The notes beneath the pieces were generated by a model. The model was not told where the DNA came from. It made no database searches and worked only from the letters and a program-made list of their open reading frames with translations. A program made the translations under genes and the position numbers. Positions 5,646 to 8,600 of a DNA stretch of 64,000 nt are shown here, in pieces; the stretch's first letter is position 1, and each line of letters starts with the position of its first letter. The stretch covers positions 128,001 through 192,000 of the forward strand of contig CM000429.1 in assembly GCA_000165345.1 (NCBI GenBank), written 5' to 3'.

Positions 5646-8600
5646 TTAAATATCAGCTTCTTCAGCTTCTTTATTAATATCATCTATTTGTTGTTGTATT
5701 TCTTGGTTGAGAATTTTATCTTCAGTAGTTTTTTTTGCCCTCTGACCAAAATCACGTTGCAAAAAGTCGTCAGAATCACTTTGGTAGTCTCCTTCATCTG
5801 TAGTTATATCAATATTTGTGCTAGGTTGTTGGTTTAAATCAGAAGGATATCCTGAAGTGATAGTTTGCCCTGGAGCTTGTGGGGGTGTTGGTGGCGTTGG
5901 TGTTGGAGTTGGTGGAAGTGTTGGTGGTGGAAGTGTTGGTGGTGGAAGTGTTGGTGGTGGAAGTGTTGGTGGTGGAAGTGTTGGTGGTGGAATTGTTGGT
6001 GTTGAAATTGGTGTTGGTGGAAGTGTTGGTGGTGGAATTGTTGGTGCTTTTGGAGTTGGTGGGAGTGGTGGGAGTGGTGGGAGTGGTGGGAGTTTCGGTA
6101 GTGTTGGAGATGGTGGAGATGAAGGAGATGGTGGAGTTGGTGGGAGTGTTGGAAGTGTTGGTGTTGAAATTGTTGGTGTTGAAATTGGTGTTGGAGCTGG
6201 TGGAGTTCCTGCAGGACCCGATATTACCGAAGCTCCTTGTTGTATTGGTGAAGCTGGCTTTAAGCCTGATGATGTAGTTGCCCCTGAATGACGCATTTCC
6301 TTTTCCTTTTCAAGAGCTTCTTCATGTGCCTTATTTAAATCAACACTGCTTGAATCGGTTAAAATTCCTTTAATATCATCTCCTTCTCCGCCAAGCTCTT
6401 CCAATAACTTATCTTCAACCTCTTCAGGGGTAGGAGATAATGGGCTTGGAAGTGTTGGAGATGGAACTCCTGGGGCTGTTGGAGGTGGTGAAGACGGAAA
6501 TGCTGGCATTGGCGGAGCTGGTGGAGATGGTGAAAGTGTTGGAATTGGAGGCGGTGGAGGTTGGTATTCAGGTTTTGGCGGAATTGGTGAGGATGATGGT
6601 GGTGTTGGAATTGGAGACGATGGAAGTGGGTATCCAGGCATTGGTGGAGATGGTGGAGGGAATAATGGTGGTGCTGGCACTGGCGGAGGTGGTGGGGAAA
6701 ATGATGGTGGTGTTGGAATTGGAGACGATGGAGGTGAGCGTCCAGGCATTGGTGGAGATGGTGGAGGGAATGATGGTGGTGCTGGTGCTGGCACTGACGG
6801 AGGTGGTGGGGAAAATGGTGGTGTTGGAATTGGAGTCCCTGCAATTGGCGAAACTTCTGCAGGTGAAGCAACTCCTGAAACTTGTGAAGCTGGAACCGTT
6901 GGACTTCCTGCAGCAATTGGAGTCCCTGCAACCGTTGGACTCTCTGGAGTCATTGGAGATCCTGTAGCAATTGGAGTTCCTGTAGCCGTTGGACTTTCTG
7001 GAACTGATGAAGAAATTTGAGTTTCTGGAATTTCTAAAGTAGGCTTTGATTCTTTAACTAAAGAAGTACCCAATTTTTTTCCAAGCCCTAATCTTCTTTT
7101 CTTTCCGTTTGTTTTTGCTTTTTGCTTTTTATCACTCCTTGACTTCTTTCTGCCTGCTCCCTTTTTCCCATGCTTTCTAGAAGCAACTCCTTTACCTTGC
7201 TCTGCATCTGATGACAACTCCGAGCTTGAATATTCTTTGTTCCCAGTCTTCTGTATTCTAGACCTTAGTCTATCCAATACCTTTCTTTTTTTCAATTCCT
7301 TTTGTTTAGACCATCTTTTCTTGAATTTCTCTTGTTTCATCTCACTAATTATACTATTTGCAACCAAATCTATTATACTTTCGCTTGAACCTTCTGTTTT
7401 ATTATCTTCTAACTCCGCATTTTCTTTACCTACTTCTCCTTTTTTCCTATCCATCTCTTCTTTAATGGCGTTTTCCTTTTCTTTAGTTAAATCCAAACTA
7501 CTTGCACTTGTGTCAATTCCTTTAATATCATCACCTTCTCCTCCTAATTCTTCTAACAACTTTTCCTCTGATTCCCTTGCTGACTTTTCTGAACCCTCAA
7601 CTCTCACTGTAACTTCTCCTTTAGGTATTTTTCCTTTCTTCTCCTTGTACTTCTCTTCTTTGATGGCTTTCTCCTTTTCTTTAGTTAAATCCAAACTACT
7701 TAAACTTGTTTCAACTCCTTTAATATCGTCACCTTCTCCTCCAAACTTTCTCAATAATTCATCCTCAGACCCCTTACTTCCCTTCTTAATTCCTTTCTTA
7801 CTTCCCTTTTTACCTTCCTTCGGCCTTCTTGATATTGTAATTCCTCTCTTGGTCTTCTCCTTCTTGGTAGCTTTCTCCTTTTCTTTAGTTAAATCCAAGC
7901 TACTTGCACTTGTGTCAATTCCTTTAATATCATCACCTTCTCCTCCTAATTCTTCTAACAATCTTTCCTCTGATTCTCCTGTAGAGCCTTGTAAATAATC
8001 CCAAGTCTCATGTCTCTCAATCCTTGCCTTTTCCTTATTTATTCTCCTCATCCTATCTTCTTCCATCTTCTTCCTTCTATTAGAATCCAAAAGAGATTTT
8101 CTTAGTCTTGTTCTCGGCCAAGAAAACAATAATTTCCTTTTCAAAAACTTAATGGATTCCTCCATTCGTTGATTGTAGTATTTCTTTAATTGAATTGCTT
8201 CTTTAACATAAACAGAAATCTCCTCCCTTAGTTTCGTCCTAGCACTTGATATATTCTTACTCTTCTTTTGACCAGAAAGTGCTTTAAACTGTTCCAATTT
8301 ATCGCTTAATTCCGATCTTAATTTTATCATCTTCGCTCTAACACTTTCTGATTCTCTTTCATTCGTACTTGGACCAGTTGCTATCTCCCTATCCAAAATC
8401 ATTATTGCGTTGGAAATCCTGGAAATCATTAAAGAACCAGAAGGCCCTTGCTCATTTCCTGAACTGTCTGAATCACTAGTCAAATCAAAACTACCTATTT
8501 CTGAATCTCTACTTGCGTCACTTGTTTGAACATCGCTTGTATCTGTCATAAAACTATCCAAGTTTAATCCAGGAACAATGTTTTTCATTGTATTTAATAC

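Follow-up and report, generated by a model that had tools for sequence, protein, structure and literature searches.

Variable-number tandem repeats (VNTRs) in the coding sequence of secreted proteins form a well-known class in Cryptosporidium. The poly-serine trinucleotide repeat of gp60 (cgd6_1080), which is used in Cryptosporidium subtyping, is in frame and its copy number depends on the isolate. In Plasmodium falciparum, MSP1 block 2, MSP2, GLURP and CSP are repeat-length polymorphic antigens employed in genotyping. Here we describe an additional case, a pair of perfect arrays with units of 15 and 9 nucleotides (nt) in cgd1_590, the Cryptosporidium parvum gene for the secreted dense-granule protein DG3. 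The gene lies in a window of 64,000 nt (contig CM000429.1 of GenBank assembly GCA_000165345.1, positions 128,001–192,000 of the forward strand), and the coordinates below are those of this window. A first-pass annotation, made from the letters alone, had marked a repetitive coding stretch there and proposed that it varies in length between strains.

Like the gp60 repeat, the DG3 arrays are in-frame coding repeats in a protein of the secretory pathway and are variable between isolates. The gp60 unit, however, is a 3-nt serine codon in a surface-exposed glycoprotein, whereas DG3 carries 15- and 9-nt proline-rich units in a protein of the electron-dense band. The P. falciparum antigens are likewise apicomplexan secreted or surface proteins with in-frame repeats, whose variation is attributed to slippage or unequal exchange. 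Their repeats are immunodominant B-cell epitopes with families of unit sequences, whereas one DG3 allele is set apart from another solely by how many identical units it has. Within C. parvum, a seven-locus multiple-locus VNTR analysis (MLVA) scheme employs cgd1_470_1429, cgd4_2350_796, cgd5_10_310/MSF, cgd5_4490_2941, cgd6_4290_9811, cgd8_4440_NC_506 and cgd8_4840_6355/MM19 (PMC9043402). The DG3 arrays resemble these loci in their perfect units of at least 5–6 bp, in the mostly coding location, in a copy number that depends on the isolate and in conserved flanks (PMC9043402); the species is the same and one of the markers is on the same chromosome. Unlike the markers of the scheme, cgd1_590 is not a member, and its locus consists of two independently varying arrays. 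A full-text search returned no typing paper with cgd1_590, a search that did not cover the candidates of Perez-Cordon et al. 2016, said to be 28 VNTRs.

Results

Two perfect arrays in the DG3 coding sequence

Both arrays lie inside the coding sequence (CDS) of DG3, as the first-pass annotation had placed them, and both are read on the minus strand (Table 1). The 15-nt array contains 5 exact copies in the register TGGTGGAAGTGTTGG (5910–5984) and 4 in the register ggtggtggaagtgtt (5923–5982) in which it had been noted, so that the five perfect copies announced earlier are confirmed in the former register. The second array had been described as a 12-nt unit in 3–4 copies. Its actual period is 9 nt, with 4 copies of the plus-strand unit ggtgggagt at 6058–6093, and exact period counting detected no perfect period-12 array anywhere in the DG3 CDS. 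The extent assigned earlier, 5880–6960, does include the perfect arrays, but these are much narrower; the remainder is degenerate proline-rich repetition, such as a 108-nt repeat of 2.2 copies at 89% identity (6593–6835) and a 54-nt repeat (6899–7002).

The orientation determines what the units encode. Because the arrays belong to a minus-strand CDS, the units are translated as PTLPP and LPP, and a Gly-rich reading of the plus strand is wrong. Gly-rich plus-strand open reading frames (ORFs) at 5818–6291, 5879–6277 and 6440–6967 were considered as coding and rejected as shadows of the minus-strand gene of 2527 amino acids (aa), which is preferred since DG3 has orthologues and has been tagged experimentally.

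Such runs are not expected from proline-rich composition. When the Pro-rich CDS segment was shuffled 500 times by codon and the longest perfect periodic stretch was scored, the mean was 16 nt and the maximum 33 nt, compared with the 83 and 37 nt observed. A census of the whole 64-kb window for perfect arrays (period 4–60, 3 or more copies, minimum length 24 nt) found 3, of which 2 are the DG3 arrays. The third is an AT-rich run of ATAATA in 4.3 copies at 60837–60862.

Copy number within C. parvum

Copy numbers were read from assemblies, namely 4 independent ones of C. parvum, 3 of C. hominis and 2 of C. meleagridis. Further isolates were reached through the conserved dynamin gene, whose start is about 1.5 kb from the arrays and whose flanks were taken from other assemblies. 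For the 15-nt and the 9-nt array respectively, the counts are 5 and 4 in IOWA-ATCC (the window), 5 and 4 in GCA_031892065, 4 and 2 in IOWA-BGF, and 3 and 3 in HLJ, and both arrays are perfect in all four assemblies. A comparison across assemblies had been set beforehand as the test of strain-to-strain length variation; the repeat number is not identical, and the prediction stands, in C. hominis and C. meleagridis as well as in C. parvum.

Over 13.5 kb, the window and BGF differ solely by whole-unit deletions in both arrays (15 nt and 18 nt, in frame), with no single-nucleotide polymorphism (SNP) at all. Over the same length, the window and HLJ differ in both arrays, in a 3-nt indel of a Pro codon, in 4 SNPs of the CDS and in a few intergenic changes. 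When aligned to the window protein, the HLJ protein lacks two PTLPP, one LPP and one Pro, and every length difference falls inside repeats. All three CDS indels in C. parvum DG3 are multiples of 3. The 64-nt spacer between the arrays is invariant across the compared C. parvum assemblies, and for a few hundred nt around the arrays C. parvum shows no SNP. When this unique spacer was used to scan metagenomes, no match was returned.

Both IOWA-ATCC and BGF descend from a single strain, and these sub-lines have been reported to be nearly variant-free. In a published comparison of IOWA assemblies, cgd1_590 is not among the genes listed with non-synonymous or frameshift variants (PMC12179316). Its absence from that list, when the arrays differ by 15 nt and 18 nt, suggests that short-read variant calling misses such repeat indels. 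Both arrays, less than 200 bp apart, have changed between the two sub-lines, which points either to mutation at a high rate or to heterogeneity already present in an uncloned stock.

On the dynamin side, the assembly GCA_031892065 has the HLJ base at four SNPs (2848, 2813, 1542 and 1230), but from 5963 to 12890 it is IOWA-like throughout DG3, arrays included. This pattern implies that the haplotype changes somewhere between about 2848 and 5963, through recombination or shared ancestral polymorphism.

The orthologous region in other species

In C. hominis, DG3 has 2622, 2646 and 2632 aa in the three genomes, and 9 of the 9 indels among them are multiples of 3 nt. The orthologous 9-nt array of ACTCCCACC is present in 3, 2 and 1 copies, two 15-nt PTIPx arrays change by plus or minus one unit, and Pro-rich region 1 carries in-frame indels of 18 nt and 69 nt. 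C. meleagridis has three perfect arrays of a 15-nt unit identical to that of C. parvum, and its two assemblies are not alike in the repeat region. At the equivalent position, the Pro-rich units of C. tyzzeri and C. canis are different ones.

The length of Pro/Thr-rich region 2, which holds both arrays, is 99–112 aa in C. parvum, 183–186 in C. hominis, 112 in C. tyzzeri and 105 in C. meleagridis. Its composition is similar across species (about 50% Pro and 27–33% Thr plus Ser), and it is followed by an acidic tail of constant length, 73–74 aa, which stays in frame under every indel seen.

Judged by the identical 15-nt unit in C. meleagridis and the identical 9-nt unit in C. hominis, the array units predate the split of C. 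parvum from these two species. The earlier description of the arrays as young is for this reason misleading: their perfection is a matter of continuing homogenization by turnover, not of youth.

The DG3 gene and its setting

The window is part of C. parvum chromosome 1, has a G+C content of 30% and contains long, intron-poor ORFs. It is identical across 14.6 kb to GCA_015245375.1, the assembly called CpIOWA-ATCC in the literature. The top protein matches of DG3 are CPHLJ_1g590 (99% identity, 2513 aa) and cpbgf_100590 (2516 aa), both of C. parvum, and remoter orthologues were found in Cryptosporidium chipmunk genotype I and C. canis. The protein search gave a single orthologue per genome and returned no paralogues. 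A search with the C-terminal 243 aa alone was uninformative, as unrelated proline-rich proteins dominate; it gave 1 irrelevant match and missed the known orthologue. No Pfam domain was found in DG3. The coordinates of its features are collected in Table 1.

Table 1. Features of the DG3 gene in the window.
Feature	Position	Strand	Description
DG3 gene cgd1_590	5646–13229	minus	ORF of 2527 aa; hydrophobic signal-like N-terminus
Acidic C-terminal tail	5649–5867	minus	73–74 aa; conserved in all species compared; downstream of the arrays
Pro/Thr-rich region 2	5868–6203	minus	aa 2343–2454; 51% Pro, 27% Thr+Ser; holds both arrays
15-nt array	5910–5992	minus	Perfect, 5.5 copies, 83 nt; coding unit TTCCACCACCAACAC = (PTLPP)x5
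Spacer between the arrays	5993–6056	minus	64 nt; degenerate copies of array motifs (TPKAPTIPPPTLPPTPISTPTI)
9-nt array	6057–6093	minus	Perfect, 4.1 copies, 37 nt; coding unit ACTCCCACC = (LPP)x4
Pro-rich region 1	6408–7043	minus	aa 2063–2274; 40% Pro; degenerate long-period repeats (108-nt x2.2, 66-nt, 54-nt)
3-nt in-frame indel	6602–6604	minus	One Pro codon absent in HLJ (IPTPSSS vs IPTPPSSS)

The product of cgd1_590 is a validated dense-granule marker that has been tagged and localized to dense granules. The secreted protein forms a cup at the host-parasite interface and has been assigned to the electron-dense band, where C-terminally tagged DG3 accumulates beside host F-actin. The secretion assumed in the first-pass annotation is thus established by experiment in the literature.

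By crude counts, the ratio of non-synonymous to synonymous SNPs in DG3 is 4:0 in C. parvum (HLJ versus IOWA) and 28:11 in C. hominis. Between these two species, crude counts give 334 non-synonymous and 148 synonymous differences, at a nucleotide divergence of about 6%. DG3 is a fast-evolving secreted protein, which fits weak constraint or diversifying selection.

Four copies of an acidic motif of about 35 aa (..LLEELGGEGDDIKGI.TS.SSLDLTKEKE..), with Lys-rich spacers between them, were observed in DG3 on the minus strand at about 6290–6400 and about 7400–8100. The motif is without a Pfam match and is conserved in C. hominis, C. meleagridis, chipmunk genotype I and C. canis. Many of the C. hominis SNPs cluster at positions 5598–6100 of the CDS, in the acidic-motif part of the gene, and conversion between the motif copies might account for this cluster.

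The neighbors of DG3 are a dynamin gene and a mitochondrial carrier gene, in an order that is the same in public assemblies. The dynamin gene, on the minus strand, starts with a first exon of 12 codons (4576–4611) followed by a 154-nt GT..AG intron (4422–4575), and a bacterial-style ORF list therefore gives an 800-aa ORF with a GTG start instead of the annotated 817 aa.

Across both strands of the 64 kb there is a single canonical G-quadruplex motif (G3+N1-7 x4), the plus-strand sequence GGGAGTGGTGGGAGTGGTGGGAGTGGTGGG at 6061–6090, which lies within the 4 copies of the 9-nt unit GGGAGTGGT. It is present in the 4-copy alleles of the 9-nt array (IOWA-ATCC and GCA_031892065) and in one C. hominis allele, and absent in BGF and HLJ. 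As a predicted structure of the 4-copy allele, it may add to the instability or set a limit to the copy number.

Discussion

The arrays exist, are non-random and vary within three species, all indels are in frame, and the units are common across species. Tandem units beyond chance, a copy number that varies within species and a unit length that keeps the frame are the marks of a coding VNTR, and all three are found here. We consider it highly probable that DG3 contains two genuine coding minisatellites, driven by slippage and near-neutral, within a disordered Pro/Thr-rich linker. Identical copies would misalign during replication, or undergo unequal exchange in the obligate sexual cycle, with the result that whole units are gained or lost. 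Since the units measure 15 and 9 nt, every change remains in frame and the acidic C-terminal tail is preserved, which makes each copy-number event tolerable. Slippage or unequal exchange would also homogenize the arrays, and in this way they may stay perfect even though the units predate speciation. The repeat segment is presumably an extended, disordered linker, as its proline-rich composition suggests. Composition and rough length of this linker are conserved while the exact sequence is not, and a change in copy number is for this reason probably nearly neutral. Hairpin-mediated instability was considered and rejected, as the folding energy is 0 kcal/mol for either strand of each array; the lack of hairpin potential on either strand fits a simple misalignment of identical units.

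Several points weigh against this reading. The assemblies are few, and an artefact of assembly or polishing in a single genome is possible. IOWA-ATCC and BGF are uncloned populations passaged in calves, and their difference could reflect the sorting of standing heterogeneity and not new mutation. The whole of DG3 evolves fast by the counts given above, so selection on the repeat region is possible as well.

The first of these points, taken further, would make all the copy-number differences a product of collapse or expansion by assemblers or polishers. The repeats here do break assemblies. Among the Logan contigs (k=31) that contain the dynamin ORF, which come from many sequencing runs, 19 of 20 have nearly the same length. 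Of the 7 places shown, 5 begin at 5938–5939, which is k-1 (30) bases into the 15-nt array; since such contigs end inside the array, copy number cannot be read from assemblies of this kind. Likewise, Pro-rich region 1 is interrupted by a gap of 100 N in the C. hominis assembly GCA_002223825, and a contig of the C. meleagridis assembly GCA_001593445 breaks off within the PTLPP arrays. For these breaks at the locus the explanation is kept in view, yet it appears very unlikely. The arrays, at 37–83 nt, are shorter than Illumina, Sanger or long reads; the differences are exact whole units with perfect flanks; the separate assemblies IOWA-ATCC and GCA_031892065 agree on 5 and 4 copies; and the variation extends to chromosome-level assemblies and to three species.

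If the variation is real, it may still be asked whether it has a function. Secreted Pro-rich repeat effectors such as EspFU/TccP of enterohaemorrhagic Escherichia coli and ActA of Listeria act at an actin-rich host interface, and their unit number depends on the strain. By analogy, the DG3 units would serve as docking sites for host modules of the SH3, WW, EVH1 or profilin type at the actin-rich attachment site, and the copy number would set how strongly the dense band is coupled to the host cytoskeleton. The location of DG3 in the electron-dense band beside host F-actin agrees with such tuning of valency. So do the predicted ligands in region 2 of the window, which has 32 PxxP cores, one KLPPLPP (+xxPxxP, class I SH3-like) and three PPLP, the number of PPLP following the LPP copies in C. 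parvum (3, 2 and 1 for 4, 3 and 2). The unit sequence, however, differs between species. In region 2, C. hominis, C. tyzzeri and C. meleagridis lack [RK]xxPxxP. KLPPLPP is confined to C. parvum, the number of PPLP varies with the species from 0 to 3, with none in C. meleagridis, and region 2 contains no EVH1-like or PPxY motifs. A conserved ligand motif in each repeat, by which an SH3 or WW effector would be recognized, was not found. The likeness to EspFU/TccP and ActA is thus one of working principle, and it concerns this explanation only: those proteins have longer repeats, defined host ligands and conserved binding motifs, whereas those of DG3 lack conservation from one Cryptosporidium species to another. 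Since C. hominis, C. tyzzeri and C. meleagridis either have no such SH3 and WW motifs or have different ones, a role in valency is unlikely. A wider form of the idea, in which the DG3 arrays are hypermutable to the point of separating sub-lines of the IOWA reference strain, their copy number is not neutral and they tune the coupling to the host actin pedestal, we rate as quite improbable. It would operate through a changed number of PxxP and PPLP or a changed length of the polyproline spacer in a dense-band component; in one variant, the predicted G-quadruplex of the 4-copy 9-nt allele could drive the instability or affect expression. Were copy number non-neutral, DG3 would be a strain-variable modifier of attachment or virulence.

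Host immunity offers another possible driver, by which changes in repeat length alter B-cell epitopes of a secreted antigen and the resulting diversity is maintained. DG3 is secreted, non-synonymous differences are in excess, and wherever a species has more than one assembly the region is polymorphic. Alleles that differ only in the number of identical units present no new epitope, however, and the literature assigns DG3 to the dense band of the host-parasite interface and not to an exposed surface. Each genome yields one orthologue, so there is no paralogue family to switch between. Immune-driven diversity is highly improbable on this evidence. Programmed antigenic variation of the var, VSG or vsp type involves a multi-copy switching family and surface exposure; neither was found for DG3, and the antigenic variation suggested in the first-pass annotation is unsupported. 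A further proposal, compatible with slippage-driven turnover, is that the region is a mucin-like domain with O-glycosylation, each PTLPP adding one predicted site. The about 50% Pro and 27–33% Thr plus Ser of region 2, with Thr flanked by Pro, would suit such a domain, as would the signal-like N-terminus and the passage through dense granules. The LPP units, however, contain neither Ser nor Thr, the Thr plus Ser content is below that of classical mucin domains, and glycosylation is not reported in the DG3 literature examined. This proposal is doubtful.

Slippage-driven VNTRs in a near-neutral linker remain the reading we favor, and the arrays may possibly be employed as a sequence-based typing marker. 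The locus is about 250 bp long, contains two independently varying arrays and told apart all three C. parvum lineages compared, and even IOWA-ATCC and BGF, sub-lines otherwise without a SNP across 13.5 kb. It could be used for identity and drift checks of laboratory lines or to add resolution to typing schemes. Perfect homogeneous repeats of at least 5 bp without indels inside the units, as sought for MLVA (PMC9043402), are present. The same source asks for flanks that are 100% conserved and length-invariant (PMC9043402); those of the DG3 arrays are SNP-free nearby, yet the other variable array lies 64 nt away. With two variable arrays so close, amplicon length alone is ambiguous and fragment sizing is confounded. 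The difference between the IOWA-ATCC and BGF sub-lines also hints at low stability, perhaps too low for typing. The use as typing markers put forward in the first-pass annotation is therefore plausible, with the proximity of the arrays, the assembly breaks and the sub-line instability counting against it.

Because k-mer short-read assemblies stop at the 15-nt array, caution is needed in genomic work on this locus. DG3 is also a marker of the dense band, and tag or antibody constructs based on one reference may mismatch another line. In their biology, the DG3 arrays represent ordinary repeat turnover in a fast-evolving secreted apicomplexan protein.

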